Below the pieces are notes generated by a model, which saw only the letters and a list, made by a program, of their open reading frames with translations, was not told the DNA's origin and made no database searches. Below are positions 1-18,030 of a stretch of DNA of 35,910 nucleotides, one piece after another. The DNA is from Candidatus Woesearchaeota archaeon (lineage in GTDB: Archaea > Nanobdellota > Nanobdellia > Woesearchaeales > JAZDKJ01). A program made the position numbers and the translations under genes. The stretch is taken from assembly GCA_043815525.1 (NCBI GenBank), contig JBDRIZ010000050.1, forward strand, positions 1-35,910, written 5' to 3'. The first letter of the stretch is position 1; each line of letters begins with the position of its first letter.

Positions 1-174
1 AGTGTGCATGTGTCAGTTCCTGTGCAGACTGCAAAAACCTGTGGCAGTGCTGCTATTAGCGCTATAAGCAAGAAAACAGCCCTCTTTTTTGCCATTATAG
101 AGGGAATCCTGGTTTACTCATATTTATATTTATTGAAAAAAGCTTCTGAAAACATAAAAACTTATATATTGTGA
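1..174 (+). CDS. possible 3' end of an upstream CDS (C-terminal hydrophobic helix)
   Basis: Frame 1 is open from the window edge for 57 codons up to TGA 172-174. The tail reads ...CGSAAISAISKKTALFFAIIEGILVYSYLYLLKKASENIKTYIL, a hydrophobic helix flanked by lysines. No start is visible and the last codons overlap the AT-rich promoter of the next gene, so coding status is uncertain. Confidence 0.3.
   Translation, partial: SVHVSVPVQTAKTCGSAAISAISKKTALFFAIIEGILVYSYLYLLKKASENIKTYIL
161..170 (+). promoter_or_regulatory. TATA-like box heading the first operon
   Basis: cttatatatt is preceded by an A-run (cataaaaa, BRE-like) and ends 28 nt upstream of ATG 198. No properly spaced SD is present. This fits an archaeal-type leaderless or short-leader start. 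Confidence 0.45.
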
Positions 175-197
175 TTTTTTTAGGTAATCACGGGGAT

Positions 198-821
198 ATG
201 GCTAATCAAAAAGATTTGAGGACTATCAGCAATCTTCAGATTGGTCCGGATTATGTCCTTGTTCATGCTAACACAAAATTCTACCCTAAAGACACTGTCT
301 ATTATGCAGCGTATGTGTTCCTTGACAGGGCACACGTGATTCTGGATGGAGATCCTGAGAAAGTTATTCTCGTTGAGCTTAGACCTAAAGACACCAAGAA
401 TCTGGAAGATCTTGGCAGGGAATTCAATAACGAGATGTTAAGCCACTTAGTATACAAGCAGCAATATGAGATGAATAAGGATGCCCGCGACGCAGTCTTC
501 CAAGAGGTGTGTGCAGGAGTTGAAAGTAGTGAAGTTCCTATTTGCAGCAGCCATGAGGATTTACAAGTATGTAATGAAACTATTGGAGAGATGGACTACA
601 CAAAAGATCCGCTTGGCATAGCAAGGCCGTGGGAAGAAGTGCATGGTAAAATTGAGGAAGGGACTGATAACAATCCACAGTACAGTTACCTGGATGATCC
701 TCTTGGTATAGCAAAGCCGTGGGAAGAGCAGCCCGGCAGGATTCTAAAAGACGAAGGTAATGATGACATGGCAAGTACTGAAAAGTCAGGCAATCATTCT
801 GCTGATGAAAAAAAGAGCTGA
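198..821 (+). CDS. hypothetical protein: ~130-aa N-terminal domain plus acidic tail with two DPLGIA[RK]PWEE repeats (candidate substrate or carrier of the rSAM system)
   Basis: The ORF track gives 171..821 (GTG). ATG 198 (MANQKDL...) fits the TATA spacing better. The N-domain reads ...YYAAYVFLDRAHVILDGDPEKVILVELRPK...EFNNEMLSHLVYKQQ... The C-terminal tail holds two 30-aa repeats. The stop overlaps the next gene start by 17 nt. Confidence 0.8.
   Translation: MANQKDLRTISNLQIGPDYVLVHANTKFYPKDTVYYAAYVFLDRAHVILDGDPEKVILVELRPKDTKNLEDLGREFNNEMLSHLVYKQQYEMNKDARDAVFQEVCAGVESSEVPICSSHEDLQVCNETIGEMDYTKDPLGIARPWEEVHGKIEEGTDNNPQYSYLDDPLGIAKPWEEQPGRILKDEGNDDMASTEKSGNHSADEKKS
594..773 (+). repeat. in-frame tandem duplication, 2 x 90 nt (30 aa)
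   Basis: Unit 1 is DYTKDPLGIARPWEEVHGKIEEGTDNNPQY and unit 2 is SYLDDPLGIAKPWEEQPGRILKDEGNDDMA. The cores at 606-638 and 696-728 are 29/33 nt identical by hand alignment. Confidence 0.8.
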
Positions 822-1701
822 TGTGAAGATAGGGTTTGTCTGCAACAACAACTGCAGGTTCTGTGTGCAGGCGCATAAAAAGCAGTTTGGCAACAGGCCT
901 CTAAGTGATATTAAAAAAGACTTGGAGCTTGCCCGGAATAATTGTGAGGAGGTTGTTTTTACAGGCGGTGAACCGACAATACGTTCTGATATCCTTGACC
1001 TCGTGCGCTTTGCAAAATCTCTTGGTTACACTCAAATTCAGATACAATCTAATGGCCGTAGGTTTGCCTATCCAGGGTTTTGTAGGCAGATAATCGCCTC
1101 CGGAGCAACTGAGTTTGCACCTGCTCTGCACGGCCACTCTCCCAAGCTGCACGATTTTCTTACAGGTAGCACTGGCAGCTTTGACCAGACTGTGGCAGGC
1201 ATAAAAAATTTAAAGTCGTTGGGGCAGAGGGTTATCACAAACACTGTTATTGTCAAGCCAAACTACCGTTATGCCGAAAATATTGCAGAGCTTCTTGTAA
1301 GCCTTCGCGTTGACCAGTACCAGCTTGCTTTTGTGCATCCTATCGGACACGCTATGAAGAACTATGATTCTATTGTGCCTTCTGTAAGCCTCGCAGCACC
1401 TTTTGTGCAAAGGGGCCTTCAGGTAGGTATCGGTTTAGGGATGAGTGTGATGGCAGAGGCGATGCCCTTCTGCACAATGAATGGTTACGAGAGCTATGTC
1501 TCAGAGCTTGTGATTCCGGATACTGAGATAAGAGACCTGCAATATGACCCTGATTACAAGAAGACGAGAAAAACCGAGGGAAAGCAGAAGTTCTCTCAGT
1601 GCAAATCTTGTATTTATGATGGAAGTTGCGAGGGCCCGTGGAAAGAGTATCCTGAGAGAATGGGTTCTGACGAGTTTACCGCAGTCAAGGGGGTGTGTTA
1701 G
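805..1701 (+). CDS. radical SAM protein, small paralogue family (long type)
   Basis: The ORF track gives 760..1701. ATG 805 gives MKKRADVKIGFVCNNNCRFC, matching the paralogue N-termini. Motifs: CX3CX2C (CNNNCRFC), FTGGEPTIRSD, LHGHSPKLHDFLTGSTGSFDQTVAGIKNL, MPFCTMNGYE, CKSCIYDGSCEGPWKEYPERMGSDEF. Confidence 0.9.
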   Translation: MKKRADVKIGFVCNNNCRFCVQAHKKQFGNRPLSDIKKDLELARNNCEEVVFTGGEPTIRSDILDLVRFAKSLGYTQIQIQSNGRRFAYPGFCRQIIASGATEFAPALHGHSPKLHDFLTGSTGSFDQTVAGIKNLKSLGQRVITNTVIVKPNYRYAENIAELLVSLRVDQYQLAFVHPIGHAMKNYDSIVPSVSLAAPFVQRGLQVGIGLGMSVMAEAMPFCTMNGYESYVSELVIPDTEIRDLQYDPDYKKTRKTEGKQKFSQCKSCIYDGSCEGPWKEYPERMGSDEFTAVKGVC

Positions 1702-1926
1702 GTGGCTTGGAAGTGCGACAAGTGCGGCAACACAGAAAGCTTCACTGAAGTCAACACTGTCAACACGCATGTTACCCAGGATAAGAATTCCACACGGATA
1801 TTGAAGATAAATAACATTTACAGGAAGGAGGGGGCACTCAATGTCTGGTGCAACAAGTGTGACAGCGAGGATGTGTCATGGGTTGAACTCACTGACCAGG
1901 ACTCTTCATATCTTACCAGGAGTTAG
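1702..1926 (+). CDS. small Zn-ribbon-like protein (74 aa)
   Basis: A GTG start directly abuts the TAG of the previous gene. The protein has CDKC near the N-terminus and CNKC about 41 residues later (CxxC...CxxC) and an acidic C-terminus. It sits inside the translationally coupled operon. Confidence 0.6.
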   Translation: MAWKCDKCGNTESFTEVNTVNTHVTQDKNSTRILKINNIYRKEGALNVWCNKCDSEDVSWVELTDQDSSYLTRS

Positions 1927-1931
1927 AATGC

Positions 1932-3956
1932 ATGACCAAGGTTGCTGTTGTCGCGTGTGATGGATATGATAAAGTAGATTTGGCCATTGGTCGCGCAATC
2001 AGCCTTCTTGGAGGCATAAACGCTTTTGTTAAAAAGAAGCAGAAAATTTTGATTAAACCAAACTTGTGCGATCCGTTGCCTCCTGACAAGGCTGCAACTA
2101 CTCATCCTGAAGTTGCAAAATCTGTTATTGGAATTGTACTGGGGACTGGTGCAACCCCTGTTGTTGGCGAGCTTTCCGCAGGCAGCATACCTGGCAGGAC
2201 TGAAGAGGCTTTTGTTGCCACAGGCATGAAAGACGTCTGCGCTTCCACAGGGACAAGACTTGTTGATTTTCAGAAAGGTAGCTTTGTTCAGCAACATATC
2301 AAGGAGTATCTATTCCTTGAGAAAACCGACTTTGCAGAAGCTGTCCTTGACTCAGATGCAATAATCAACCTTCCAAAGCTAAAGACTCACGGTGCATGTT
2401 ACCTCACTGGTTGCGTAAAGAATCTTTTTGGGTGTATCCATCCTGAAGAGAGGGAGTATATTCATTCGCATGGTGAGAACTCCCTCAACAATGGTGTGGT
2501 GGATATTTTTTCTGTTGTCAAGAACAAGGTGGTATTGAATATTATGGACGCAGTAGTTGCAATGGAGGGTGATGAAGGCCCAAGCTACGGCAACCCAAAG
2601 AGGTTGGGTTATATTATTGCTTCCACCGATGCTGTGGCAGCAGATGCTGTCGCAGCGAAAATTACAAATCACAATCCAATGGAGATACCGATAATAAGCG
2701 ATTGCCATCACCGCAGGCTTGGCTGCGGCATCCTCAATGACATAGAAATCGTCGGAGATGGCTTTCGCCAGGTGCTTGATTTCAAGGTCCACACAAACTA
2801 CCTAAACAGGCATGACAAGGATAAAAAATCAAGGCTGCAGCCAGTAATTACATCTGCCTGCACGAGATGCTCTGCTTGCGAGAAGAGCTGCCCTGCTCAG
2901 GCGATTTCCTATAGTGATGATAAGGCAAGGTTTGAAATCGACCAAATAAAGTGCATCAAGTGCTATTGCTGCCTCGAGGTGTGCATCTTTGCGGCAATAA
3001 AGCTTGAGACTTCTGCGAGGCCAGCAGACCTTATTCGCCTCGGCCTAAACTGCAACCACAAGTGCCTGTTCTGCACTGTTGGTTTGGACAGGACTCCTGA
3101 TCTGTCCACAAAAGAGGTAATGAACCTCATCGATGTTTTGGCTGCGAATGGTTCGCAGAAACTTGCTTTTACCGGCGGAGAACCAACTTTGAGGCCTGAC
3201 CTTTTTGCTCTGGTGGCATACGCACGATCAAGGGGGATTAAGATAATTGAGTTGCAGACCAACGCTTCAGAAATTTCCAAAGCAGGCTATGCAAAAGCAA
3301 TAACTGACGCTGGAATCAGCCATTTCATGGTCGCCCTGCACTCGGACAAGGAAGAGGTTTACAACAAGCTTACACAAAGCAGGCATTTCAAAAACGCTGT
3401 TGGAGGAGTAAAAAATCTGCTTAAGTTTCCTGTAACAATAACAATTTCGCATGTGATAAATTCAGAGAACTATAAGGGCCTTGAGTCGTTTGTCAATTTT
3501 GTGCATTCAGAATTTCTTGCAAAACCATGCATTTATTTTGGTTTTGTGAGGCCGAATGGCACTGCAAAGGCAAACAAGTGGATTGTTCCAAAGATGAGCC
3601 TTGTCGAGCCATACCTGCATAAGGCTTTTGCAAAATGCGCAGCTCTTGGGATTGTTTTCATGGTTGAGGGTTTGCCTTTATGCTACATGCAGGGTTACGA
3701 GCAGCATAACGACGAGACAAGGCGCCTGCTCTGTTCTCCGGCTGTGCATCTCGAGGCAGGTGTTGTAAGAGATGACACTCATAAGAGGCATCTTGTGGAC
3801 AATAAAGGAGAGGCAGAGTGCTGCGATGTCTGCAGCCTGTCCAAACTGTGCCCGAGAGTCTGGAAAGAGTATTCTGACATCTACGGGACTGGCGAGCTTT
3901 TTCCTGTATTTGACGAGAAACTAAAGGATAGTCTGAAGGTGTTTTTCAGTGGTTGA
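1932..3956 (+). CDS. tri-domain fusion: DUF362 + 2x[4Fe-4S] ferredoxin + small-family radical SAM
   Basis: The N-terminus has DUF362 hallmarks: KVAVVACDGYD, ILIKPNLCDP...ATTHPEV, LPKLKTHG...TGCVKNLFG, DAVVAMEGDEGPSYGNP. The ferredoxin motifs CTRCSACEKSCP and CIKCYCCLEVC start at nt 2859. The rSAM core has CNHKCLFC (nt 3051-3074), FTGGEPTLRPD, LPLCYMQGYE and CDVCSLSKLCPRVWKEY. AGGAG lies 9 nt upstream of the ATG. Confidence 0.92.
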   Translation: MTKVAVVACDGYDKVDLAIGRAISLLGGINAFVKKKQKILIKPNLCDPLPPDKAATTHPEVAKSVIGIVLGTGATPVVGELSAGSIPGRTEEAFVATGMKDVCASTGTRLVDFQKGSFVQQHIKEYLFLEKTDFAEAVLDSDAIINLPKLKTHGACYLTGCVKNLFGCIHPEEREYIHSHGENSLNNGVVDIFSVVKNKVVLNIMDAVVAMEGDEGPSYGNPKRLGYIIASTDAVAADAVAAKITNHNPMEIPIISDCHHRRLGCGILNDIEIVGDGFRQVLDFKVHTNYLNRHDKDKKSRLQPVITSACTRCSACEKSCPAQAISYSDDKARFEIDQIKCIKCYCCLEVCIFAAIKLETSARPADLIRLGLNCNHKCLFCTVGLDRTPDLSTKEVMNLIDVLAANGSQKLAFTGGEPTLRPDLFALVAYARSRGIKIIELQTNASEISKAGYAKAITDAGISHFMVALHSDKEEVYNKLTQSRHFKNAVGGVKNLLKFPVTITISHVINSENYKGLESFVNFVHSEFLAKPCIYFGFVRPNGTAKANKWIVPKMSLVEPYLHKAFAKCAALGIVFMVEGLPLCYMQGYEQHNDETRRLLCSPAVHLEAGVVRDDTHKRHLVDNKGEAECCDVCSLSKLCPRVWKEYSDIYGTGELFPVFDEKLKDSLKVFFSG

Positions 3957-4776
3957 CTTAGGCATTGGAGACAGATGCAACAGCAGTTGCATAATGTGCA
4001 CAACAGTGAGGCCAGAGGACAAAAAGGTGGAGAACCGCATGCTCTCAAAGGAAGAGGTCTTTTCGATGATTGACAAAATGGAGAGGCCACCTTACATAGC
4101 TATCACAGGTGGCGAGCCTACAATAAGAAAAGACTTAACCGAGATAGTAGGTCATGCCAGAAATCGTTTTCCAGCTGCAGAGATAAAGCTTTTGACAAAC
4201 GCCAGGATGGCCAGCTATCCTGACTACGCAAACGACTTGCTCAGCACAGGTATTGATGTGTATATAATCCCTTTGCACAGCCATCACCCTGACCTTCATG
4301 ATTTTGTAACAAGGACAAAAGGAAGCTTTGTTCAGACCGTACAGGGCATCAGGAATTTATCAAAGGCAAAGATCGAGATAAGGATAGTCATCCATGGGAT
4401 TAACTATCCATTCCTTCCAGAGACTGCAGAGTTCATCAGGGATAATTTCCCCGGCGCCTCGGTTGTTATGATTTATTTTGACATAATTGGCAGCGCATTC
4501 ATCAACAGGGATCGGCTTGTTGTGCAGATGACCAGGATAGCACCTTATCTCGAAAAGGCTATTGATGTCTTGCAGCAGAATGACATCCATACCTATCATT
4601 TTCCTTTATGCGTCCTTGGCCTGCGCTACCGCGATAGTGCCAAAGGTGTGACTGTTGTTGGTCACAGGATAATGTTCGCAGACAGTTGTGCAGCATGCAG
4701 CATGAAGTCTAAGTGTTGCGGGATTTGGAAAGCTTATGCAAAGCTGGTCGGTACCGGAGAGTTCAAGCCAATATGA
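3949..4776 (+). CDS. radical SAM protein, small paralogue family (short type)
   Basis: The GTG start overlaps the upstream stop by 8 nt. Motifs: CNSSCIMC, ITGGEPTIRKD, LHSHHPDLHDFVTRTKGSFVQTVQGIRNL, FPLCVLG, CAACSMKSKCCGIWKAYAKLVGTGEF. Confidence 0.9.
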   Translation: MVDLGIGDRCNSSCIMCTTVRPEDKKVENRMLSKEEVFSMIDKMERPPYIAITGGEPTIRKDLTEIVGHARNRFPAAEIKLLTNARMASYPDYANDLLSTGIDVYIIPLHSHHPDLHDFVTRTKGSFVQTVQGIRNLSKAKIEIRIVIHGINYPFLPETAEFIRDNFPGASVVMIYFDIIGSAFINRDRLVVQMTRIAPYLEKAIDVLQQNDIHTYHFPLCVLGLRYRDSAKGVTVVGHRIMFADSCAACSMKSKCCGIWKAYAKLVGTGEFKPI

Positions 4777-6137
4777 AACGAGTTGTTTTGGTCTGGCCTT
4801 TTGACCACTGCCACTCGCCTAGCCTTTCTCTTTTGTACCAGGCAAAGATATTGAATGGTTCCTATGATGTTTCCGTTGTTTATTCAAACCAGCTTTTCTC
4901 TTCTGATAATCTTAGTCTGCCTCTTGAGGTGCAAGAAGAGCCTGAGCGTAGCCTAAAAAAGGTTGCAAGCGTGGTTGCCAAGCTGGATCCTGATTACGTA
5001 TGCATCGGAAGCTACAGGCAGCACACTCCTTTTATTGACAGGTTTGCCAAGCAGTTCCGGATGCAGCATGATGCTGCCTTGATTGCAACCGGCTATGTCC
5101 CGACATTTTCTCCAGAGGAGATGCTTTCTTTGACACCTGAGATTGAATTCATTCTTCGCGGCGAATCTGAGCGCTCGCTTAAGAATTTGTTGGACAGTCT
5201 TTCCAAATCACAAAGTCAGTCTGAAGTGAAAGGGCTTTCTATGAAAAAAGATGGAGTCTTCCATCACAACCCGACCGACAGAATTGAAGATTTGGATTCA
5301 CTGCCTTTGTTTGATTTTGAGGATATTGTGGGAAACAGGCCAAAAAGGATTGACATCCGCTCTTCTCTGGGTTGCATTATGGACTGCCGCTTCTGCGGTC
5401 TTCACAAGATGTGGCCAAGGCCTGTCAGGTATCATAGCGAAGATTATGTGCTTCGCCAAATCAAGCATCTGGACAGCCTGTATTCCATGGAGTTTGTGCA
5501 TTTTATAGACGAGATGTTTCTCTGTAATGTCAAAAGGGCAGAGTCTCTTGCGCAAGCCATCCACAGGAATTTTCCTTATCTTAAATGGGGTTGCATGTTC
5601 AGAAATGATACAGTTAGCGAGTCTGTAGCAAGCCTGCTGAAAGATTCTGGCTTGGTTAACGCAGCTGTTGGAGTGGAATCCAACAACCCAAAGGTGTTGC
5701 AGTTCCTGCAAAAGACCAAGTCGCCATCCAGCTACCTCGCAGGCATTAACAAGAATATTGACATGCTAAAGGAGAAGCTTGAGTTCCTTGAGTTGGGTTT
5801 TATCACAGGCACTCCTGTTGAGACTGCGTCAGACATCCTTTCGCTGATTGAGTTTGTGCAGGATATTAAAAATGACAGGAAAGAGCTGAAGGACCTGAGG
5901 ATAGCGCTTGGAAGGCTTGTCATCTACGCAGGTTCGGATCTCTATTCAAGAATTGGTCAGTTCAACATGGTCAAGGATGAGATGAGGTATTCTGCATACC
6001 AGAAATTCTTCGAAGCAGGCTATGACCGCTTGTTCTGGGCTGTTCCGTGGAACTATCTTGCAGAAAATAAGAACTTCAGGAGCCATGCAGACTACATGGA
6101 GATTCTATCCAAAGCTTTCGAGGCTGCAAGAACATGA
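4773..6137 (+). CDS. B12-binding-domain-type (class B-like) radical SAM protein
   Basis: The ORF track gives 4713..6137. ATG 4773 forms an ATGA overlap with the upstream stop (MKRVVLVWPF...). The N-terminal Rossmann-like region carries RGESERSLKNLLDSL, followed by SSLGCIMDCRFCGL (CX3CX2C) about 215 aa in. Confidence 0.88.
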   Translation: MKRVVLVWPFDHCHSPSLSLLYQAKILNGSYDVSVVYSNQLFSSDNLSLPLEVQEEPERSLKKVASVVAKLDPDYVCIGSYRQHTPFIDRFAKQFRMQHDAALIATGYVPTFSPEEMLSLTPEIEFILRGESERSLKNLLDSLSKSQSQSEVKGLSMKKDGVFHHNPTDRIEDLDSLPLFDFEDIVGNRPKRIDIRSSLGCIMDCRFCGLHKMWPRPVRYHSEDYVLRQIKHLDSLYSMEFVHFIDEMFLCNVKRAESLAQAIHRNFPYLKWGCMFRNDTVSESVASLLKDSGLVNAAVGVESNNPKVLQFLQKTKSPSSYLAGINKNIDMLKEKLEFLELGFITGTPVETASDILSLIEFVQDIKNDRKELKDLRIALGRLVIYAGSDLYSRIGQFNMVKDEMRYSAYQKFFEAGYDRLFWAVPWNYLAENKNFRSHADYMEILSKAFEAART

Positions 6138-7024
6138 GCGAGGCATTCATCAAGCTTGACTTCCGCTGCAACCAGGAGTGCCTGTTCTGCTGCACCTCTG
6201 ATGACAAGGACTCGCTTTCAGCAGAAGAGGCAAGGAATCTTATCGCGAAGTACGTTAATGACATGGGTTACAGAACAGTTTGTTTTACTGGCGGAGAGCC
6301 CACCTTAAGGCCTGACCTGCCAGAGCTTGTGAGTTATGCAAAAAGCCTGTCAGCAGAGGTAAAGTTGCAGACTAACGGATCGCTCTTGTATGACAAAAAG
6401 ATAGCTAGCCAATTAGTCGACGCTGGCGTCACAAGGGCTCTTGTGTCAATCCATTCTCATAAGGATGAAATAAACGATTTTATCACCAACACACCCGGTA
6501 GCCTGCAAAAGTCTCTTTCCGGCATACAGAATCTGCTCGAGTTAGGAGTTGATATTCATCTCGCATATGTAATCACCAACCAGAATATCGAACTCACTGA
6601 CTTTGTGAGGTTTGTTAAGTCCAGGTTTCCTGTAATCAACTTCTTTTTGTTTTTTTTGCCATATCCTTTGGCACGTGGCTGGCGCAATCGCCAGTACGTG
6701 CCTAGACTTGGGGATATTGAAAAAAACCTTTCCGAATTGTACGGCTACTGCAAATCAAAAGGGATTGGCTTCTCAACGCGGGGAATTCCGCTCTGCTACA
6801 TGGCTGGCTTCGAAAATCACTCTTCTGAAACTCAAGCTTTGATGTCTGAGGAAAAGCCGATGGTCATTAACGACTATGAGGTGCTTGAGCCAAAGCACAG
6901 CTTTGAAGAAACAAACGTAAAGGATGATTGCTGCAAATTTTGTGCTGTGAACGACTGTTGCGGCGGTGTCTGGAGATACTATCCTGACATTCACAAACAT
7001 CAATTATGGCCGGTGGTGAGATGA
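6134..7024 (+). CDS. radical SAM protein, small paralogue family (short type)
   Basis: ATGA overlap with the upstream gene. Motifs: CNQECLFCC, FTGGEPTLRPD, IHSHKDEINDFITNTPGSLQKSLSGIQNL, IPLCYMAGFE, CKFCAVNDCCGGVWRYY. Confidence 0.9.
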   Translation: MSEAFIKLDFRCNQECLFCCTSDDKDSLSAEEARNLIAKYVNDMGYRTVCFTGGEPTLRPDLPELVSYAKSLSAEVKLQTNGSLLYDKKIASQLVDAGVTRALVSIHSHKDEINDFITNTPGSLQKSLSGIQNLLELGVDIHLAYVITNQNIELTDFVRFVKSRFPVINFFLFFLPYPLARGWRNRQYVPRLGDIEKNLSELYGYCKSKGIGFSTRGIPLCYMAGFENHSSETQALMSEEKPMVINDYEVLEPKHSFEETNVKDDCCKFCAVNDCCGGVWRYYPDIHKHQLWPVVR

Positions 7025-7968
7025 AGCGCGACAGAAGGCTTGAGCTCCTTGTGGGCTACACCTGCAACAACAACTGCATGTTCTGCTACGTTGCAGCCGA
7101 GAGGGAAAAGTTCAAGGACAAGACAACTTCTGAACTAAAAAAGGATATGCTGGCTGCGAGGAAAAGAGGCACAACTGAACTCGCGTTTCTCGGTGGAGAG
7201 CCAACAATCAGGCCTGACCTGCTGGAGCTCGTGCGTTTTGCAGTGGACAACGGCTTTGAGCATATCAAGGTAACCACCAACGGCAGGATGATGAGCTATC
7301 CTGCTTTTGTCGATTCCATTGTTTTGGCAGGCATTACAAAAGTTCTTTTCTCTTTTCACAGCAGTAAGGGTGAGATTCACGATAAATTGACGAGGGTTGA
7401 AGGCAGCTTCAGGCAGCTCATGCAGGCAGTATCAAACGTTAAAAGGCACCCGCAAGTGGCAATAGAGACAAACTCCACAATCACAAAGCATAATCACACC
7501 GGCCTCCCGGATATGGCAAGGCTTTTTATCAGTCTCGGTATGTTATCATCCGAGTTCATATTCGTGTTCCCGTTCGGAAACAGCCTCAAGAACTTTCACG
7601 ACATCGTTCCTTCCTACAAAGAGTCAGCCAGGTTTATGGTCGAGGCTTTGGAAATTGGGGCAACAAGTAAAACCAAGGTGCTGATGCGTTATGTTCCTTT
7701 TTGTATTCTACCTAACCATATTGGTTATATTGCAGAACTTTACGACCCTCCTGAGCGCGAGCAGGTTGGTCCTGGCTTCGAGACACTTGATGTGATAAAA
7801 ATGCGAAAAACTGTTGATAGGGCACAGTTGGACAAGTGCAATGCTTGCAAGTTTACCCTTGTCTGTGAAGGCCCTTGGAAAATCTATCCAAGATTTATGG
7901 GCTCTGACGAGTTCAACCCAATTGACGGACAAAAGGTTATTGATGTGGGTGAGTTAAGGCAATGGTAG
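7021..7968 (+). CDS. radical SAM protein, small paralogue family (long type)
   Basis: The ORF track gives 7006..7968. ATG 7021 gives an ATGA overlap and MKRDRRLELLVGYTCNNNCMFC. Further motifs: FLGGEPTIRPD, VPFCILPNH, CNACKFTLVCEGPWKIYPRFMGSDEF. GGTGGTGAG lies upstream. Confidence 0.9.
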   Translation: MKRDRRLELLVGYTCNNNCMFCYVAAEREKFKDKTTSELKKDMLAARKRGTTELAFLGGEPTIRPDLLELVRFAVDNGFEHIKVTTNGRMMSYPAFVDSIVLAGITKVLFSFHSSKGEIHDKLTRVEGSFRQLMQAVSNVKRHPQVAIETNSTITKHNHTGLPDMARLFISLGMLSSEFIFVFPFGNSLKNFHDIVPSYKESARFMVEALEIGATSKTKVLMRYVPFCILPNHIGYIAELYDPPEREQVGPGFETLDVIKMRKTVDRAQLDKCNACKFTLVCEGPWKIYPRFMGSDEFNPIDGQKVIDVGELRQW

Positions 7969-10643: not shown

Positions 10644-11632
10644 TGATTAAAGCAAAGAGATTGTTAATGAACATCTCGCTTAGCATGATTATTATATTTC
10701 TGATGATCTCTGGCATTGAGCTGTATCTTAGGATTCACTACTCTGGCTTGCTAGCTCAGATACTGACTGGCAAAATGACTGGCTATCCCAATGCCGTGGA
10801 ATCTCTGGGCAAGCTCAGCCAAGGCTATCCTCTCACCCCTAATACAACTGTGGTTTACACTGGATACCTTACATTCCTACAGCCATCAACAATAACAACA
10901 AATAGCCAAGGATTTCGTGATGTTGAGCACAATAAGGGCAAGCCGGCAAATACTGTTCGTATTTTAAGTCTTGGGGATAGTGTCGCTTTCGGTGAGGGTG
11001 TCAATCTGGAAGATACATACGCCAAGGTTCTGGAGAGAAAGCTAAACAATCATAGTACAAAGAAGTACGAAGTCTTGAACTTTGGTCGTTTTGCCTACGG
11101 AACCATGGACGAACTTGAGCTTCTTGAGAAGAAAGGCTTGGATTATAGTCCTGACATCGTCATTTTGATGATGGTCTATAATGACTTTCAGAATGTGGGT
11201 ACTGTTCAGAATGACAACTTGTTATTGGAATCTGTCAGGAGGGATACTGCAAATTCAAGCTTGAGACTCTCACAATGGTTGGATAGAAAGCTTACTATCT
11301 TGGAATATAGGAAAAGCGAAAATATGTACAATGAGACAGACAAATACAATCTCGTAAAATTGCCCTTGGAAGGCATTATCAATCTTTGCCTTCAGCATGA
11401 TATCCATTTGATGGTGCTCCAGTATCACGGCCACCAGCCATATATGGATGATATCAGTAATTTTCTCGCAACACAGGGTATTAGAACCATAGACCTACAG
11501 AAGTCAAAATTGGTGACAGACTACAGAAATGGAGAAATTATGTTGCCAGACGGACATCCTACGCCTCTTGGCCACCAGATTATAGCAGATATATTATTTG
11601 AGAATCTTATTGAGGAAAAAATCTTGAAATGA
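10643..11632 (+). CDS. membrane-anchored SGNH/GDSL-type hydrolase (paralogue of 8795..9742)
   Basis: 1-nt overlap with the upstream TAA. There is an N-terminal TM helix (MNISLSMIIIFLMISGIELYL). SGNH blocks: ILSLGDSVAFGEG, NFGRFAYGT, ILMMVYNDF, LPDGHPTPLGHQIIA. Confidence 0.8.
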   Translation: MIKAKRLLMNISLSMIIIFLMISGIELYLRIHYSGLLAQILTGKMTGYPNAVESLGKLSQGYPLTPNTTVVYTGYLTFLQPSTITTNSQGFRDVEHNKGKPANTVRILSLGDSVAFGEGVNLEDTYAKVLERKLNNHSTKKYEVLNFGRFAYGTMDELELLEKKGLDYSPDIVILMMVYNDFQNVGTVQNDNLLLESVRRDTANSSLRLSQWLDRKLTILEYRKSENMYNETDKYNLVKLPLEGIINLCLQHDIHLMVLQYHGHQPYMDDISNFLATQGIRTIDLQKSKLVTDYRNGEIMLPDGHPTPLGHQIIADILFENLIEEKILK

Positions 11633-12528
11633 GTCAGATAGAAGAGCCAAGATATTGTTTATTTGAACATAAGTATGAGAACAAAGAATGGGTGGGGTAT
11701 ACAAAATTTATCCCGGAAGTCCTTGCAGTTAGGATTGGTGTTAAGCCGGTAATGAGAATCCCAATCAATCCTAATTTTGGGTACCCTAAGTTCAAAGAGC
11801 TGTGCAAAAGATTCGGTCTTGTGACGGGACTCTCAGATTACCAAATTAGGGAGCCCTACACACCAAAGGATATCCTGCCTTCTAAAACGCCTTATGGGCA
11901 CTATTTCATGTATGTTAGCAGAACGCAGGACCTGATTGAGCTGGCAAAAAAGTATGATTTATACGACCAGGATAGGTTCGGAGAGCTAATGGGCTATCCC
12001 CGGTGCTGCATTGACTATTACAGTCGAGTTTCAAACTCTCCCCCAGTCCACGAGGTTTATGGTTATGTGCATAGCAAAAGACCACTGTTTTGGCAGAATA
12101 ATTATCTATTACGCTTTAATTCCAACTACTATCTTCATGCATATTTTTTATGTTCTTTTGACTGCATGGATTCAAGGAAGCGGGGGCAGAAGATATTCGA
12201 AGCAATAAGGAAATTTGATGAGGTGTATGCAAGAAAGATAGAGCACCATCTCAAGCTTCCAATCCTCTTGGATGACACAAGGCCAGGAGGGATTCTTCAC
12301 AACTGGGACCGGCTCAAGGGCGTTGTTTTCAACGGTTCTTGGCATAATAATATCATTGTCTACTCAGGTCAATTGTCCCTTTGGCAGGGAGCATACTTCC
12401 CGATTTTTTCGAAATCCAATCAAGTTTTAATAAATGCAGATTCAATGTACCTATATTCCGATGGTAGGTTGATAGGAAAGATTAAAATAACAAACAATTT
12501 TGAGTCATTTTTCCTGCAATTTAGTTAA
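11629..12528 (+). CDS. hypothetical Cys-motif protein (GYPRCC ... C-x3-C)
   Basis: ATGA overlap with the upstream gene and GAGG upstream. The conserved-looking motifs are FGELMGYPRCCIDYY and HAYFLCSFDCMDS. There is no TM segment. It is the last gene of operon 1. I do not recognise the family with confidence. Confidence 0.8.
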   Translation: MSQIEEPRYCLFEHKYENKEWVGYTKFIPEVLAVRIGVKPVMRIPINPNFGYPKFKELCKRFGLVTGLSDYQIREPYTPKDILPSKTPYGHYFMYVSRTQDLIELAKKYDLYDQDRFGELMGYPRCCIDYYSRVSNSPPVHEVYGYVHSKRPLFWQNNYLLRFNSNYYLHAYFLCSFDCMDSRKRGQKIFEAIRKFDEVYARKIEHHLKLPILLDDTRPGGILHNWDRLKGVVFNGSWHNNIIVYSGQLSLWQGAYFPIFSKSNQVLINADSMYLYSDGRLIGKIKITNNFESFFLQFS

Positions 12529-12728
12529 AAAGTGTATCATATTTATGAGGTATAATAAGCAATTGTTCGAACAGTAAAAATGAAGAAGAATATTGACATC
12601 GTCTGCGCGCAGAATCTGCTTCGGGAGTCTGACGCTTAGGGCATCTGGAATGAAGTGACATGTACGCGAAGGAATAGGCGGACTACTCAAACAAATTGGG
12701 ATATGCTAAATGGTATTGGAGAGCTTGA

Positions 12729-12740
12729 TTAATATATTTT
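12729..12740 (+). promoter_or_regulatory. TATA-like box heading the second operon
   Basis: ttaatatatttt ends 25 nt upstream of ATG 12766, inside the only sizeable + strand gap (12529-12765). Confidence 0.4.
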
Positions 12741-12765
12741 CAAGTATTATTGAGAGGATTATAGC

Positions 12766-13662
12766 ATGAAACGGATCGATATCAAGGTAGATTATCGATG
12801 TAACAATAATTGCATTTTTTGCGTCATAGGCGAAGAGGGGCGCAAAGCCAAAGGAGTCACCGTTAGTGAGATAAAAAAAGAACTTGATTTTGCCAGACAA
12901 AGTGGAGCAACAGAGGTAGCTTTCACTGGCGGTGAGCCGACGATTCGAAAGGAAATAATTGAATTGATCAAATATGCCAAAAATTTGGATTATAAAAGTA
13001 TCATGCTGATAACGAATGGGAGAATGCTGTCGAAAAAAGAATTTGCCAGAAAGAGTGTTAATGCCGGATGTAACAAGTTCATGTTTAGCATCCACGGCAT
13101 CGGTAATAACCATGATGATTTAACAAGATCACCCGGAAGTTTTAAGCAAGCAATACAGGGCATGAAAAACATAAAAAATCTTGGACAAGAGATGATAAGT
13201 GACACTGTAGCTACAAAGCAGAACTACAAGAACCTTCCGGAAATTATCCATACCCTCATTAATCATGGTTCTCAAATCTGCCAGATTGATTTTGTCATTC
13301 CTTCCGGTAATGCTCTGAAATTCAAAGAAATCGTTTTGCCAAGGTTGAGCGAGTGCGCACCTTATGTTCATAAGACAATAGACTATGTCACAAACAAGGG
13401 AAAGAGCCAGATTATTGTTATGGGAATTCCAAATTGCTTTATGAAGGGTTATGAGACATACATGAATGAGCCGCGCGTTCCGTCAATCAACATTGTGTCC
13501 CCTCAGAGTGTGCATGCTGAAGTGGACTACAATACACAAAGAAAAAGCAACAAAGTGAGACTGGATGCATGTTGTGTATGTGAACATTTTATTAGGTGTG
13601 AAGGTATATGGCCTAATTATCTAGCACAATTCGGACAAGGTGAGTTCGTTCCAGAAAGATGA
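12766..13662 (+). CDS. radical SAM protein, small paralogue family (long type)
   Basis: Motifs: MKRIDIKVDYRCNNNCIFC, FTGGEPTIRKE, IHGIGNNHDDLTRSPGSFKQAIQGMKNI, IPNCFMKGYE, CCVCEHFIRCEGIWPNYLAQFGQGEF. Confidence 0.92.
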   Translation: MKRIDIKVDYRCNNNCIFCVIGEEGRKAKGVTVSEIKKELDFARQSGATEVAFTGGEPTIRKEIIELIKYAKNLDYKSIMLITNGRMLSKKEFARKSVNAGCNKFMFSIHGIGNNHDDLTRSPGSFKQAIQGMKNIKNLGQEMISDTVATKQNYKNLPEIIHTLINHGSQICQIDFVIPSGNALKFKEIVLPRLSECAPYVHKTIDYVTNKGKSQIIVMGIPNCFMKGYETYMNEPRVPSINIVSPQSVHAEVDYNTQRKSNKVRLDACCVCEHFIRCEGIWPNYLAQFGQGEFVPER

Positions 13663-14318
13663 ACTTGAAAGACATCGCTCGTATCAAGATGGCTGCAGTC
13701 TACATAATGGCTTTTCTTTTGATTGCCAGCATCTATCTAAATATTAGGGTGTTATCCCACGATTTTTGTTCCTTGAACATGAAGCAGACTGCTGAGGAAA
13801 AGCGCATGGTATATGCCAAGGAAAGGAATTATTCTCAGGATGGGGTTCCATTGAAGACTTTCAGGAAGTTTGACTATGACTGGAAGGATTCTGTTACAAT
13901 AACTAGCATTTCAGCAAGTTCCTTGGAAGACAGTGGAGCTAACCTAAAGGACTTGAGTGCCTCGCTTGCAAACAACAGCATACTGATAAGGTTGACATCA
14001 GCTGACAAATTCAATTCTGAGTTAGGCTATGACTTTTACTTATATGGCACCAATCATTACCAGATTAGGGTTTTTCCGGGTGTTGGTTATTATGTTTATA
14101 AGCAGGTGGATCAATCGCCAGAGATAGAGCATGTTGAAGGTAGCAGTAACATCTATGTGTACAACGACGAGAGAATATTGACCATCAGGTGCCCCTTGAA
14201 TATTTTGAATGTTGGCCAGCAGGTGGATATAAATGTGGCTGTCTTTAGTCCTGTCACCATGACATTTGATAAAAGCCAGTTTACAAAACCGATTGTTCTT
14301 GCTGTGCCGAAAGGATAG
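13659..14318 (+). CDS. signal-anchored extracytoplasmic protein, paralogue family A (1 of 4)
   Basis: ATGA overlap with the upstream gene. There is an N-terminal TM helix (AAVYIMAFLLIASIYL). Shared blocks are NLKDLSASLANNSILIRLTS and YDFYLYGTNHYQIRVFPGVGYYVYKQ, compared with 28597..29244, 18005..18793 and 18803..19312. Confidence 0.8.
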   Translation: MNLKDIARIKMAAVYIMAFLLIASIYLNIRVLSHDFCSLNMKQTAEEKRMVYAKERNYSQDGVPLKTFRKFDYDWKDSVTITSISASSLEDSGANLKDLSASLANNSILIRLTSADKFNSELGYDFYLYGTNHYQIRVFPGVGYYVYKQVDQSPEIEHVEGSSNIYVYNDERILTIRCPLNILNVGQQVDINVAVFSPVTMTFDKSQFTKPIVLAVPKG

Positions 14319-15301
14319 TGATTCCCGTGAGCCAGAATATACCACCAAGAATGATAGAAATCGGGTCTGATTGTAATCAACATTGCACGTTTTGCTGCCA
14401 GGCAGACCAGCGCGGCCTGCCTGACAAGGGTACTGAGCAGATAAAGAGGGAGATTGACCGGGCCGCAGCGGACGGTGTTAATAATCTGTCCATCCAAGGA
14501 GGAGAATTCACCATCAGGCCCGATTGCATAGAGTTGGTTGAGTTCGCTTTCCAAAAGAATTGTTTCAAAAATATTCATGTCACTACAAACGGACTAGTGT
14601 TTGCTTACAAGGCATTTTCTCAAAGAATTGCGCAAGCAGGCCTTTCAGCAGCTAATTTCTCCATTCATAGCCCTCGAGCTAAAGTCCATGATGCCTTGAC
14701 AAGGCGTTCAGGCAGCTTTGAATTGTCTATTAATGGTATTAGGAATCTTTCCCAATGCTATAACCCAACCTCGCAAGGAAGAGTGAACATCTGTAGTTCG
14801 ATTACTGTTGTAAAGCACAATTTTCACGACTTAATCAAGTTGATTGACCTTTTGGCAGATTTAGGCATCCATGATTTCCATTTGAACTATGCAATCCCAA
14901 CAGGCAATGCTCTGAAAAATTTCGATTCAGTAGTGCCGAGATTTTCAGAAATCTCAGGTTTTGTCCACAAAGCGATTTCTCATTGCGTAGAAAAAGAATA
15001 TAAAATATTTGTTACAGGTATTCCTTTGTGTTTCATGACTGGATTCGAAGTGTATCTTGATGAAGCTCATAAATCAGAATTTACCATGGTCCCATTTCAT
15101 CACCCAGGCAAGGATATCATTACCAATTACAAGGCGGAAGTACGGATGAGTATGAAGGTCAAGCACGATAAGTGTAAGAATTGTGGTTACGATCGGATAT
15201 GTGAGGGTGTTTTTAAAAACTATGTAGATGTCCACGGTTTTGAGGAAATGAACCCTAGCAAAAGAAAATTTGAGTCTTTGTTTGATTGGCATATTGGGTA
15301 G
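14318..15301 (+). CDS. radical SAM protein, small paralogue family (long type, divergent GGEF)
   Basis: GTG 14318 overlaps the upstream TAG by 1 nt; the alternative start is ATG 14351. Motifs: CNQHCTFCC, IQGGEFTIRPD, IHSPRAKVHDALTRRSGSFELSINGIRNL, IPLCFMTGFE, CKNCGYDRICEGVFKNYVDVHGFEE. Confidence 0.88.
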   Translation: MIPVSQNIPPRMIEIGSDCNQHCTFCCQADQRGLPDKGTEQIKREIDRAAADGVNNLSIQGGEFTIRPDCIELVEFAFQKNCFKNIHVTTNGLVFAYKAFSQRIAQAGLSAANFSIHSPRAKVHDALTRRSGSFELSINGIRNLSQCYNPTSQGRVNICSSITVVKHNFHDLIKLIDLLADLGIHDFHLNYAIPTGNALKNFDSVVPRFSEISGFVHKAISHCVEKEYKIFVTGIPLCFMTGFEVYLDEAHKSEFTMVPFHHPGKDIITNYKAEVRMSMKVKHDKCKNCGYDRICEGVFKNYVDVHGFEEMNPSKRKFESLFDWHIG

Positions 15302-15302
15302 C

Positions 15303-16148
15303 ATGGCATTAAGAATTTTTGAGCTTGATAACATCGTTTGGAATACAGAGGGTTCGGTATTTGAGAGGCTTCCACCATTTCATCTAAAAGGCAACCAAGA
15401 ACTTGTGGATTCAAAAGGAAAATCTATCAGGTTGGATGAGCATGCTTCACTTGTTTTCAGATTTATTAAAAGCCAAGGGGATATGATATCAATATCCCGT
15501 TACTATCAAGAAGAATTGATCTTTGACATTTTGCATCAGTTTGGTTTGATGAATTTCCTATGTTTCCTGACAATTGAATGGGATAAGGGCCTGGGAACAT
15601 TTAGGAAAGAAATCAAAAATCCTGAAGGCAATATCCGGATGAATCAGGAGGACATCAGTTTTATCAATACAAAATCAGCATATTTTTCGATTGTTGGCCA
15701 GGCTTTAGGCTGGGAAGGAAAGGGATACGACTCCTTGGTATTTTATGAAAAAGCAGTCGAGCTTGACCAAGAGAACCTATCTGCTCTTCTTGGTATTGCA
15801 CTCATCTTTTTCCAAAGGCATGAAACTGGCAAAGCCCTTGAGATATTTGATAGTCTGAAAGAAAAGATGAGGCATCCAGCAATACCTCTGTGCATGGCCA
15901 GAATCTACCGCGAAATAGGTGATTTGGGGCAGAGCATTAAGTTTTATGAGGACGCTGTTTCCCAGAATCCAGTGGATTGGATAGTCTACCAGGAGTTAGG
16001 TGAATTGTTTGAGATAACCAAACAGTATACCAACGAGTACAATTCAGTTCTTAAAGCTATTGAGAACAATCCACCGCCAGAAAAGTTGAAGTTATTTCGC
16101 AAAAGATTATATGTATTGACACAGCTAACCAAAGGAGATGGCATTTGA
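15303..16148 (+). CDS. TPR-repeat protein
   Basis: The ORF track gives 15270..16148. ATG 15303 lies 2 nt after the upstream TAG. The C-terminal half has TPR-like 34-mers (YEKAVELDQENLSALLGIALIFF..., ARIYREIGDLGQSIKFYEDAVSQNP, ELGELFEITKQYTNEYNSVLKAIENNP). Confidence 0.8.
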   Translation: MALRIFELDNIVWNTEGSVFERLPPFHLKGNQELVDSKGKSIRLDEHASLVFRFIKSQGDMISISRYYQEELIFDILHQFGLMNFLCFLTIEWDKGLGTFRKEIKNPEGNIRMNQEDISFINTKSAYFSIVGQALGWEGKGYDSLVFYEKAVELDQENLSALLGIALIFFQRHETGKALEIFDSLKEKMRHPAIPLCMARIYREIGDLGQSIKFYEDAVSQNPVDWIVYQELGELFEITKQYTNEYNSVLKAIENNPPPEKLKLFRKRLYVLTQLTKGDGI

Positions 16149-17104
16149 GTCAATTGGAGAACGATCTGGTCTTTGTAGAAAAGAAAAGGGCAATTTTCAA
16201 CATTGGGTACACCTGCAATAACAATTGCCGGTTCTGCGCTATTGCCAAGACAAGGGAGATGGTCTCGGACCTGACGACTGAGCAGATTAAAAGCAAGATT
16301 AGGCAGGTTAGAGAGGAAGGTGCCGAGGAATTGATTTTTTCAGGAGGCGAGTCTTCTGTCAGGCCTGATTTTGTAGAGATTGTGGACTTTTCTCGAAGAG
16401 TGGGGTTTAGCCATATTGAGATAACGACAAATGGAAGAATGTTTTCGTACAAGAAGTTCTGCCATGACATTGTTAGGGCAGGTCTTCATTATTTCCGGTT
16501 TTCAATTCATGGTCCGAATACAGAGATTCATGATTATCTGACCAGGACTCAAGGAAGTTATGATGAGGCTTTGAGAGGTATAGACAATATTAAGGCCATT
16601 GCCCAAGATTGGAGAAAGTGGTCAGTGGAGCCACTTTATATTGAAATAACTACTGCAATTGTCAAAAGCAACTATCAAGTATTGAAAGATATTGTGAAGC
16701 TGGCAGTAGACATGCAAGTGGATCAGCACAATATGAATTTTGTTATACCATGGGGCTCTGCGTGGATTCATAAGAGAGGGCTTATCCCAAAGATATCAGA
16801 TGTTATCCCTTACTTGTTTGATGCGATTAATTACGATAAGTGCCATAAGAGGATTGTAAAAAAAATCGCAAATATCCCTTTTTGTTTTATGAAGGGTTAT
16901 GAGGAATATATCAGTGAAGTTGCCGAAGGCAGGATTGATATCATGAATCCGCAGGGCGACCCCTTTGACTATCAAAACCACAGGCGAGCAAAAAAATGCA
17001 ACATGGAAGCATGCAAGGATTGTCAGCGTTATCATTTGTGCGAAGGGATGTACTATGAGTATATAGAAATCTACGGTGATTCCGAGTTCAGTGCTGTCAA
17101 ATGA
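16145..17104 (+). CDS. radical SAM protein, small paralogue family (long type, divergent GGES)
   Basis: The TTG start overlaps the upstream TGA, with AGGAG 8 nt upstream. Motifs: CNNNCRFC, FSGGESSVRPD, IHGPNTEIHDYLTRTQGSYDEALRGIDNI, IPFCFMKGYE, CKDCQRYHLCEGMYYEYIEIYGDSEF. Confidence 0.88.
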   Translation: MSQLENDLVFVEKKRAIFNIGYTCNNNCRFCAIAKTREMVSDLTTEQIKSKIRQVREEGAEELIFSGGESSVRPDFVEIVDFSRRVGFSHIEITTNGRMFSYKKFCHDIVRAGLHYFRFSIHGPNTEIHDYLTRTQGSYDEALRGIDNIKAIAQDWRKWSVEPLYIEITTAIVKSNYQVLKDIVKLAVDMQVDQHNMNFVIPWGSAWIHKRGLIPKISDVIPYLFDAINYDKCHKRIVKKIANIPFCFMKGYEEYISEVAEGRIDIMNPQGDPFDYQNHRRAKKCNMEACKDCQRYHLCEGMYYEYIEIYGDSEFSAVK

Positions 17105-18030
17105 ATAAGAATCTTGAGTTGGAGCTTGGTACCAAATGTAATAGCCACTGCATCTACTGTGAGCAGGGTAATAATCCCATAAACAGTTCTTATGGGTTTT
17201 TGCCTTTTGACGAAGCAAAGAGAGTCATAGGCCAAGCAGGCAAAAATGGGGCAAAGAGGCTGTTACTCCAAGGTGGGGAGCCAACCCTTCACCCAAACAT
17301 TATTGAGATCATCAAGTTTGCCAAAGATTTGGGATTCGAGGTCGTACTTTTCACTAATGGGCGCTTGTTTGCATATCCAGATTTTTCAAGAAAGATACTT
17401 GCAGCCGGTTTGGACAGAGTGACTTTTTCGATTCTTGGAAATACATCTCAATGCCATGACTCAATTACTCAAGCCAAAGGAAGCTTTGACCAAGCCTTGA
17501 AGGGTATTCGTAACGCACTTACCGTTCTAGACAGTTCAAAAATCTCAAACTCCTGCGTGATTATAAAGGGAAATTATCAATATTTATGTGATATTATGCA
17601 ACTTATGGCTTATATAGGAGTGAAAATGAATCATTTTATTAGTGTTATACCATATGATTCATTACTCAAACGAGAAGATATCTTCATTCCATATTCTGAC
17701 ATTCTTCCTTTTGTGAAAAAGACAATAAAAAAGAGGGGTGACAACCAAATTCTGTTTGAGAACATACCTCCATGCCTGATGGATGGATATGATATGTTCC
17801 TCGCAGAATATCACAACATTCCTCTAGACATAAAAAGAATGGATAGGAGAGATATTATTGAAAAAAAGAGCGTCCAAGATTCAAGAATAATGCTTGAAGT
17901 CTGTTCCGGTTGCCACAGGCACAATTCTTGCCTTGGTGTCCATAAAAGCTATGTCCACCTTTTTGGCAGCCATGAGTTCTGTCCAGTCCAAAAAAGGCTT
18001 ATAAATGCAACAAAAGGTATTTATAGGTAA
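17101..18030 (+). CDS. radical SAM protein, small paralogue family (long type)
   Basis: ATGA overlap with the upstream gene. Motifs: CNSHCIYC, LQGGEPTLHPN, GNTSQCHDSITQAKGSFDQALKGIRNA, IPPCLMDGYD, CSGCHRHNSCLGVHKSYVHLFGSHEF. Confidence 0.9.
   Translation: MNKNLELELGTKCNSHCIYCEQGNNPINSSYGFLPFDEAKRVIGQAGKNGAKRLLLQGGEPTLHPNIIEIIKFAKDLGFEVVLFTNGRLFAYPDFSRKILAAGLDRVTFSILGNTSQCHDSITQAKGSFDQALKGIRNALTVLDSSKISNSCVIIKGNYQYLCDIMQLMAYIGVKMNHFISVIPYDSLLKREDIFIPYSDILPFVKKTIKKRGDNQILFENIPPCLMDGYDMFLAEYHNIPLDIKRMDRRDIIEKKSVQDSRIMLEVCSGCHRHNSCLGVHKSYVHLFGSHEFCPVQKRLINATKGIYR

Follow-up and report, generated by a model that had tools for sequence, protein, structure and literature searches.

A 35,910-bp stretch of DNA from a Candidatus Woesearchaeota archaeon (the entire contig JBDRIZ010000050.1 of a metagenome-assembled genome; the whole stretch is called the window below) encodes twelve homologous small radical S-adenosylmethionine (SAM) modules, which their sequences place, as N-terminally minimal members, in the HxsC branch of the radical SAM superfamily. 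HxsC is a component of HXS (HxsA-D), an anti-phage system described in a 2026 study (PMC13128918). We propose that the twelve modules, together with an HxsD-like protein encoded directly upstream of the first of them, probably belong to an expanded Hxs-like maturation system of a DPANN archaeon, which would introduce radical modifications one after another into what is probably a peptide or protein substrate. The four-block signature that unites the modules corresponds, as judged from the alignments, to the known hallmark of HxsC and HxsC4 and is no new motif. What appears to be new is an archaeal Hxs-like cluster that lacks HxsA and HxsB, is expanded twelve-fold and has a tailed HxsD; a literature search on radical SAM arrays of DPANN archaea, DUF483 and DUF362 returned no description of such a cluster type.

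The genes of the window are densely packed, lie nearly all on the plus strand and frequently overlap by 4-60 nt. Ten of the twelve modules are intact stand-alone genes, one is fused to other domains and one is frameshifted. Eleven of them are located, all on the plus strand, at 805-1701 (long class, as defined below), 3015-3956 (the C-terminal domain of the fusion gene 1932-3956, from nt ~3015 onwards), 3949-4776 (short class, with the canonical C-terminal spacing of HxsC), 6134-7024 (long class with an acidic insert), 7006-7968, 7962-8798 (short class), 9708-10643, 12766-13662, 14318-15301 (GGEF variant), 16145-17104 (GGES variant) and 17101-18030. A preceding sequence-only reading of this DNA had given 805-18030 as the span of its twelve paralogues; the number was right, but the twelfth copy (33944-34857, plus strand), which it also named, lies beyond that span. 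The reading frame of this copy is shifted by -1 in an A6 run near 34105-34110, where A7 would restore NGAKK followed by VCFSGGEP, which points either to a fault of the assembly or to a gene that has recently become a pseudogene. Since it is the only copy with a frameshift, 11 of the 12 modules are intact. All twelve matched the Pfam family Radical_SAM above its gathering threshold (PF04055, best E 8.5e-26) and thus belong to the radical SAM superfamily. Pairwise identity between the paralogues is 25-40%, and profile E-values among the copies and their relatives range from 1e-38 to 1e-110, so that the similarity is not due to chance.

The columns that are invariant in all twelve copies are, in the numbering of the 805 copy, C13, C17, C20, G54, G55, E56, N83, N135, N153, P221, C223, C266, C269, C275 and Y282, that is, a CxxxCxxC motif, GGE, three Asn, PxC, CxxCx5C and one Tyr. 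The sequence-only reading had described four blocks, the literal patterns of which we scored by regular expressions on the twelve copies. The SAM-motif block matched in every copy as written. The GGEP block matched in nine, and the 805 copy (GGEPTIRSD) was found among the three deviating ones in addition to the two variants already pointed out. The first half of the third block was found in only five copies, and its second half, G[IVM]xN[LIVA], in ten. With regard to the fourth block, PxCxxxG[YF][ED] matched in nine copies and the terminal GxxEF in seven; the pattern CxxCx5CxGxWxxY likewise matched in seven, while CxxCx5C alone is present in all twelve. The four-block observation is real, but its literal patterns are over-specified. 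The proposed division into two length classes is reflected in the distance from PxC to CxxC, which is 22-26 residues in 3949 and 7962 only (short class) and 43-48 residues in the other ten copies; 6134, with an acidic spacer of 46 residues, had been wrongly placed in the short class. The insert of the long class, described as basic, has a clearly basic character in no more than a few copies, and that of 6134, of the C-terminal domain of 1932-3956 and of 33944 is acidic. The claim of four positionally conserved Cys beyond those of the SAM cluster was borne out: there are exactly four, they are invariant in an alignment of 127 homologues from DPANN archaea, candidate phyla radiation (CPR) bacteria, Elusimicrobiota, Omnitrophota and Margulisiibacteriota, and they are also present in annotated HxsC.

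In order to assign the copies to a family, we compared them with the curated NCBIfam models. HxsC (TIGR03977, best E 1.2e-52) and HxsC4 (NF038332, best E 3.1e-50) were the top families for all twelve copies, while MoaA, AhbD, NirJ, PqqE and other families were weaker by tens of orders of magnitude. Excised C-termini matched only the C-terminal ends of the two models (positions 242-290 of 292 in HxsC and 299-335 of 335 in HxsC4). A tblastn search of the 3949 copy against plasmids returned 498 records, and the annotated features among the matches listed were almost all hxsC; the alignments with rhizobial hxsC genes run from end to end (residues 4-275 of the 3949 copy). The blocks of annotated Sinorhizobium meliloti HxsC are CDQLCVMC, SGGEP, TN, FPLC and, at the extreme C-terminus, C-LN-C-RSKET-C-GGFFQWY...GFEF, with a gap of 25 residues between PxC and CxxC and a tail of 19 residues, which is exactly the geometry of the short class. 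A profile of the twelve copies aligned by hhalign with annotated Nostoc HxsC (Prob 99.7, E 6.8e-27) in an alignment reaching CxxCx5C-GG. The conserved Cys after the core lies in PLC in S. meliloti and in QLC in Nostoc and is followed in both by CxxCx5C-GG. The window copies thus share with HxsC all four blocks, including the post-core Cys, CxxCx5C-G-G-x-[FW]-x2-Y and the terminal GxEF, as well as an HxsD-like partner gene. They differ from it in being present in twelve copies instead of a single one and in the insert of ~20 residues before CxxC in ten of them. The system as a whole differs from HXS in that the window contains neither HxsB nor an HxS-repeat HxsA and that the host is an archaeon. 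The sequence-only reading had stated that its finding would fail if the family mapped cleanly onto a known subfamily. Because the signature is that of the HxsC/HxsC4 family, this has partly happened, although the scores lie below the NCBI cut-offs.

The HXS study reported that HxsC binds HxsD and that a C342A/C345A exchange in HxsC lowers the processing of HxsA without abolishing it, and its authors ascribe two 4Fe-4S cluster domains to HxsC (PMC13128918). The CxxC formed by C342 and C345 corresponds to the CxxC of the window copies, since the offset of 234-237 residues from the SAM motif agrees. Like the invariance of the four extra Cys, the phenotype of this exchange lends indirect support to a second cluster in the window copies.

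The gene directly upstream of the first copy (171-821, plus strand; likely start at the Met of codon 10) encodes a divergent form of HxsD with an added tail. Its match to the NCBIfam HxsD model (TIGR03976, E 2.8e-9) reached 37.2 bits, under the cut-off of 50. In hhalign, a profile of the HxsD-like protein aligned with annotated Nostoc HxsD (Prob 95.4, E 1.8e-8), and the 70 relatives found in the database are annotated either as HxsD or with PF27806. An AlphaFold2 model showed a folded domain at residues ~15-120 (predicted local distance difference test (pLDDT) score 95-98) and a disordered tail (pLDDT 46-69). Two DPLGIA[RK]PWEE motifs are located in this tail (nt 606-638 and 696-728), and the motif occurs in 61 of the 70 homologues, with one to three copies each. 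This conserved tail sets the protein apart from HxsD; its motif could act as the core peptide of a substrate or else serve for docking. Foldseek found no match of the modeled protein in the Protein Data Bank (PDB) below E 0.001, the best one being Rpb11-like (0.011), and the predicted fold does not appear to be an obvious RiPP recognition element (RRE; RiPP, a peptide made by the ribosome and modified after translation). The profile also had no similarity to a hypothetical open reading frame (ORF) of 82 aa upstream of S. meliloti hxsB (hhalign, E 0.33).

Some related loci in other genomes share gene order with the window. In the window and in five further loci, an HxsD-like gene is the first of the operon. 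On a 334-kb Joint Genome Institute contig (L008), the order HxsD(tail), radical SAM gene, zinc ribbon (72 aa there, 74 aa in the window), DUF362-ferredoxin-radical SAM gene, radical SAM gene is the same as in the window. Orthologues of 805 (57% identity), of the radical SAM domain of the fusion and of 3949 are present on a Micrarchaeia contig (L003), where DUF362-ferredoxin is a separate gene. On a Logan contig (L001), the order of the window is kept by orthologues of 7006 (partial, 68%), 7962, 9708 (70%), 12766, 14318, 16145 and 17101, which are 43-70% identical to the window copies and interleaved with the same SGNH hydrolase, DUF483, tetratricopeptide repeat (TPR) and B12-binding radical SAM genes as in the window. 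Each of the paralogues tested thus has an orthologue of its own on another DPANN contig. A neighbor-joining tree recovered six orthologue pairs between the window and L001 with bootstrap values of 95-100% (among them 7962, 99; 9708, 100; 14318, 95; 16145, 100; 17101, 99). As these pairs are well supported, the duplications are old and each copy has been retained. The ratio of nonsynonymous to synonymous substitution rates (dN/dS) was uninformative as a check, since saturation of dS affected all orthologue pairs and nearly all paralogue pairs (dN 0.2-0.57). The top matches of a full-library profile search, proteins P0191-P0204 from public metagenomes, are polypeptides of 600-1,400 aa with two to five tandem HxsC-type modules, every one of which has retained a SAM motif and the C-terminal Cys motifs. 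The suggestion of the sequence-only reading that the copies have non-redundant, position-specific roles gains support from the six L001 pairs and from these multi-module polypeptides.

Some of the related loci are organized differently. An Elusimicrobia contig (L005) has about ten radical SAM genes in a row, several of them HxsC-type, and its accessory set is distinct, with two Peptidase_U32 genes, an aminotransferase and an M20 peptidase between the radical SAM genes. A second architecture, found in the DPANN contigs L009, L010 and L012, consists of a gene of ~375-390 aa, HxsD(tail), a second HxsD-like ORF of 57-83 aa and a radical SAM gene of ~470 aa, the product of which carries a SPASM domain in L010. 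The gene of ~375-390 aa is Peptidase_A24/Arc_PepC prepilin-peptidase-like in L010 (upon rescanning), has a faint Arc_PepC match in L009 and no family match in L012, which hints at a link of this architecture to exported, pilin-like proteins.

In the proposed maturation system, each paralogue would hold a SAM-cleaving [4Fe-4S] cluster via CxxxCxxC and would introduce a radical modification of its own, distinct in site or in chemistry, into a common substrate or related substrates. Electrons would probably be fed in by the DUF362-ferredoxin module that is fused to one of the paralogues. The HxsD-like protein may serve as an adaptor, as in the HxsC-HxsD complex, or may present its own tail as the substrate. 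The substrate would probably be ribosomally made; candidates are the DPLGIA[RK]PWEE tail, the zinc-ribbon protein and four co-clustered, family-unassigned proteins, of which three are membrane-anchored. Further modifications, probably methylations, might be added by six B12-dependent radical SAM proteins together with a corrinoid-reactivation set. A much narrower version, which we regard as quite unlikely, would be a widespread pathway of DPANN archaea, and perhaps of CPR bacteria, in which the HxsD-borne sequence DDPLGIA[RK]PWEE (one to three copies) is remodeled stepwise by up to a dozen HxsC-type and several B12-dependent radical SAM enzymes to a heavily cross-linked or methylated peptide-derived product, each HxsC-type enzyme having the unusual auxiliary cluster with one plus three Cys discussed below. 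Its logic would resemble that of PQQ and mycofactocin, in which a conserved core is paired with a small protein dedicated to it, and the K-P-W core of the motif hints at cross-linking of the Lys-Trp type.

Several observations weigh against an Hxs-like system acting on a peptide or protein. None of the twelve copies reached the curated cut-offs of HxsC (267.9 bits) and HxsC4 (500 bits), and their scores are far below them: the first copy scored 114.5 and 157.1 bits, respectively, and the copies span ~115-180 bits, the upper value being our estimate from the best E-values. According to the alignment with S. meliloti HxsC, the copies lack the N-terminal domain of ~90 residues: the SAM motif of S. 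meliloti HxsC begins at residue 96, that of the 11 stand-alone copies at residues 10-24, and that of the fused copy behind DUF362-ferredoxin. A six-frame search of the window for HxS repeats of at least three units yielded only a chance match inside a B12-binding radical SAM gene. No HxsB-type SPASM radical SAM protein (~470 aa) is encoded in the window, the other radical SAM proteins being B12-binding, although HxsB-like SPASM proteins do follow the HxsD(tail) genes in L009, L010 and L012. The reaction of HxsC was left undefined by the HXS study (PMC13128918). The presence of SGNH hydrolases and of a GT-C (C-fold) glycosyltransferase in the cluster fits a non-peptide substrate, and the best structural neighbors of the core, BlsE and GDGT-MAS, act on a nucleoside sugar acid and on lipids, respectively.

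These last points lead to the main alternative, namely that the paralogues tailor a non-peptide molecule, which could be a membrane lipid of the cell envelope, a glycan or a nucleotide sugar. The radical SAM enzymes would then perform epimerization, dehydrogenation, decarboxylation or C-C coupling, and a surface glycoconjugate or lipid would be finished by the SGNH hydrolases together with the GT-C transferase and the B12-dependent methylases. We consider this alternative unlikely, albeit with some evidence in its favor. The cytosylglucuronate decarboxylase BlsE and GDGT-MAS/Tes are the closest solved structures for the radical SAM core of the copies and the best core matches in the PDB (sequence E-values of 4.9e-24 and 5.8e-22, Foldseek E-values of 1.5e-13 and 1.1e-12, respectively). 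The cluster contains two membrane-anchored SGNH hydrolases and a PMT_2 protein, a PMT_2-like neighbor is also found in L008, the B12-binding radical SAM proteins score best against BchE, HpnJ and lipid-type families, and the paralogues lack both an RRE-like domain and the N-terminal domain of HxsC. However, the paralogues are by a wide margin closest to HxsC, an enzyme with a protein substrate, and an HxsD-like partner opens the operon in the window and in five other loci. Moreover, the PDB matches cover only the generic core with 16-22% identity (~170-215 residues with 21-22% for BlsE and GDGT-MAS, the NCBIfam models of which are far below cut-off), and all matches of the B12-binding proteins to radical SAM families remain far below cut-off.

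The Hxs-like reading also bears on the C-terminal module. A post-core Cys followed by CxxCx5C-GG...Y...GxEF, which is typical of HxsC, is found in the window copies, and we propose that PxC and CxxCx5C most probably ligate one auxiliary Fe-S cluster per copy entirely through Cys. Known auxiliary modules differ in their Cys layout. The SPASM domain has seven Cys, arranged as CX9-15GX4C-gap-CX2CX5CX3C-gap-C, and binds two auxiliary clusters, while the twitch domain is a truncated SPASM fold (β-hairpin and α2') with one auxiliary cluster, to which it contributes one Cys before the hairpin, one after it and two after α2' (PMC6231123). The twitch enzymes BtrN, SkfB and MoaA resemble the copies in their small C-terminal extension with Cys sufficient for a single auxiliary cluster, in one ligand placed in the linker just past the core (PMC6231123) and in matching the core of the window copies. 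They differ in that no twitch protein aligns across the C-terminus of the copies, the layout of which is one plus three (PxC ... CxxCx5C) instead of one plus one plus two, and the three-Cys motif CX2CX13C of MoaA is absent from the copies. The SPASM enzymes SuiB, anSME, PqqE and CteB are similar in that CxxCx5C equals the first part of CX2CX5CX3C, but only four of the seven motif Cys are present here, the CX9-15GX4C element is missing, and one cluster at most would be bound instead of two. In its spacing, CxxCx5C is closer to the first three Cys of this SPASM element than to the twitch pattern, and the module can be called half-SPASM or twitch-like, as in the sequence-only reading, only tentatively. 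The description of the module as falling short of the seven-Cys SPASM pattern was accurate; Pfam SPASM (PF13186) matched none of the twelve copies at E<=0.01, and the isolated C-termini matched SPASM-type families (TIGR04053, AhbD) weakly (E 0.03-0.1).

Membership in MoaA, PqqE, anSME, BtrN, NirJ/AhbD or viperin was considered as well, and all of these were far weaker than HxsC and far below cut-off; for MoaA (TIGR02666 and TIGR02668), the first copy scored 46-52 bits, and the best E-value among the copies was 5.7e-28, compared to cut-offs of 284-325 bits. An AlphaFold2 model of the 12766 copy was of high confidence, the C-terminal module included (pLDDT 96.9, predicted template modeling score 0.93), and had short strands and helices after the core. 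Foldseek with this model revealed core-level likeness only, with BlsE, GDGT-MAS, SkfB, viperins and MoaA at query-normalized template modeling scores (TMq) of 0.5-0.65; the longest alignments were those to SuiB (333-343 columns, TMq 0.66-0.70, root-mean-square deviation ~6 Å). Sequence matches in the PDB stop near residues 170-220, short of the C-terminal module.

A lone Cys together with CX2CX5C ligates a [4Fe-4S] cluster in nucleases of the Cas4/AddB type. By analogy to this precedent, the set of one plus three Cys would be chemically sufficient for such a cluster. The PDB sequence search with the C-terminal profile alone, from which the alignment to these nucleases was taken, gave chance-level matches only (E > 1).

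The C-terminal Cys might instead bind structural zinc or a [2Fe-2S] cluster, or might leave an open site for substrate as in MoaA, CteB and SkfB, so that no [4Fe-4S] cluster of the proposed kind would form. SkfB indeed has a [2Fe-2S] cluster, and MoaA and CteB have open coordination sites (PMC6231123); in addition, the double mutant in the CxxC motif of HxsC was decreased in processing but not devoid of it (PMC13128918). We give this alternative little credence, since the invariance of four Cys in 127 sequences suggests full ligation and the HXS authors assign two 4Fe-4S cluster domains to HxsC (PMC13128918). The arrangement in Cas4/AddB-type proteins points in the same direction, as an analogy with an alignment at chance level.

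The remaining genes of the window include several that recur in the related loci. A four-Cys zinc-ribbon protein of 74 aa (1702-1926, plus strand), encoded in an apparent intergenic gap, is a real, conserved member of the operon, since an orthologue with ~70% identity lies at the same place in L008 (11420-11638, phmmer E 1.6e-34). The fusion gene 1932-3956 (plus strand) encodes 674 aa with DUF362 at aa 39-243 and a 2x[4Fe-4S] ferredoxin at aa ~305-358, as identified by Pfam and by ferredoxin matches in the PDB, followed by the radical SAM domain. A DUF483 protein is encoded separately at 11629-12528 (plus strand); this recurrent partner forms the C-terminus of HxsC-type radical SAM proteins elsewhere, including L012 17-1213 and a DUF362-ferredoxin-radical SAM-DUF483 fusion of 959 aa in L008 (11643-14522). 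Two membrane-anchored GDSL/SGNH hydrolase-like proteins are encoded on the plus strand at 8735-9742 (just under the Pfam cut-off) and at 10643-11632 (L001 orthologue with 55% identity), and a TPR protein that is syntenic with L001 at 15270-16148 (plus strand). The four family-unassigned paralogues are located at 13659-14318, 18005-18793 and 18803-19312 on the plus strand and at 28597-29364 on the minus strand. All of them except for 18803-19312 have an N-terminal membrane anchor, and relatives are found as pairs in the radical SAM clusters of L001 (19612-20759) and L012 (5887-7817).

A B12-binding radical SAM protein is encoded among the first HxsC-type copies (4713-6137, plus strand), with matches to Pfam B12-binding and Radical_SAM and sub-threshold matches to NCBIfam. 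The accessory block downstream of the copies (19335-33947) contains five further ones (19335-20897, 24367-25968, 27264-28610 and 32421-33947 on the plus strand, 22888-24333 on the minus strand), which brings the number of radical SAM genes in the window to 18. The block also encodes a PMT_2 GT-C membrane protein (20842-22560, minus strand), a RACo-like activase for corrinoid reduction (26149-27267, plus strand), a methyltransferase-like URO-D/MtaA-like protein (29405-30421, plus strand) and a B12-binding corrinoid protein (30418-31044, plus strand). The RACo-like, MtaA-like and corrinoid genes among the six B12-binding radical SAM genes suggest a dedicated set for cobalamin loading or reactivation. 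An AAA_14/DUF4143 ATPase at 31031-32281 (minus strand) matches the PADLOC candidate family PDC-S01, and a similar ATPase is found in the radical SAM locus of L009. At the end of the contig (34811-35703, minus strand), a HepT-like RNase and an MNT nucleotidyltransferase form a toxin-antitoxin pair. Rfam and tRNA scans of the window found nothing.

It is very improbable that the window holds an archaeal antiviral defense island akin to bacterial HXS, whose paralogues would reflect arms-race diversification instead of a stepwise pathway: the anti-phage role of HxsA-D (PMC13128918), the PDC-S01 ATPase and the HepT/MNT pair speak for it, but the six-frame HxS-repeat search of the window revealed no HxsA-like effector, another genome has collinear one-to-one orthologues, in contrast to the turnover expected of arms-race genes, PADLOC gave the radical SAM proteins generic viperin-level matches only, and the cluster is rich in biosynthetic accessory genes.

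The HxsC-type family is very large, with 6,068 clusters at 50% identity that match our profile at E<=1e-30 in a full-library profile search, and it is not known to include a member of defined chemistry or solved structure, the 2026 HXS study being the only known functional work. Our results show that its catalytic module is used in arrays, with twelve copies here and two to five fused per polypeptide elsewhere. They provide handles for its study, namely the set of one plus three Cys, the tailed HxsD-like protein as a candidate substrate or adaptor, and one-to-one orthologue sets from which the order of steps may be approached. DPANN archaea have strongly reduced genomes. For such an organism, 18 radical SAM genes in ~36 kb represent a large investment and should be of consequence for the life of the cell. 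Should a surface protein or a peptide-derived cofactor turn out to be the substrate, the system would bear on the interaction between symbiont and host.

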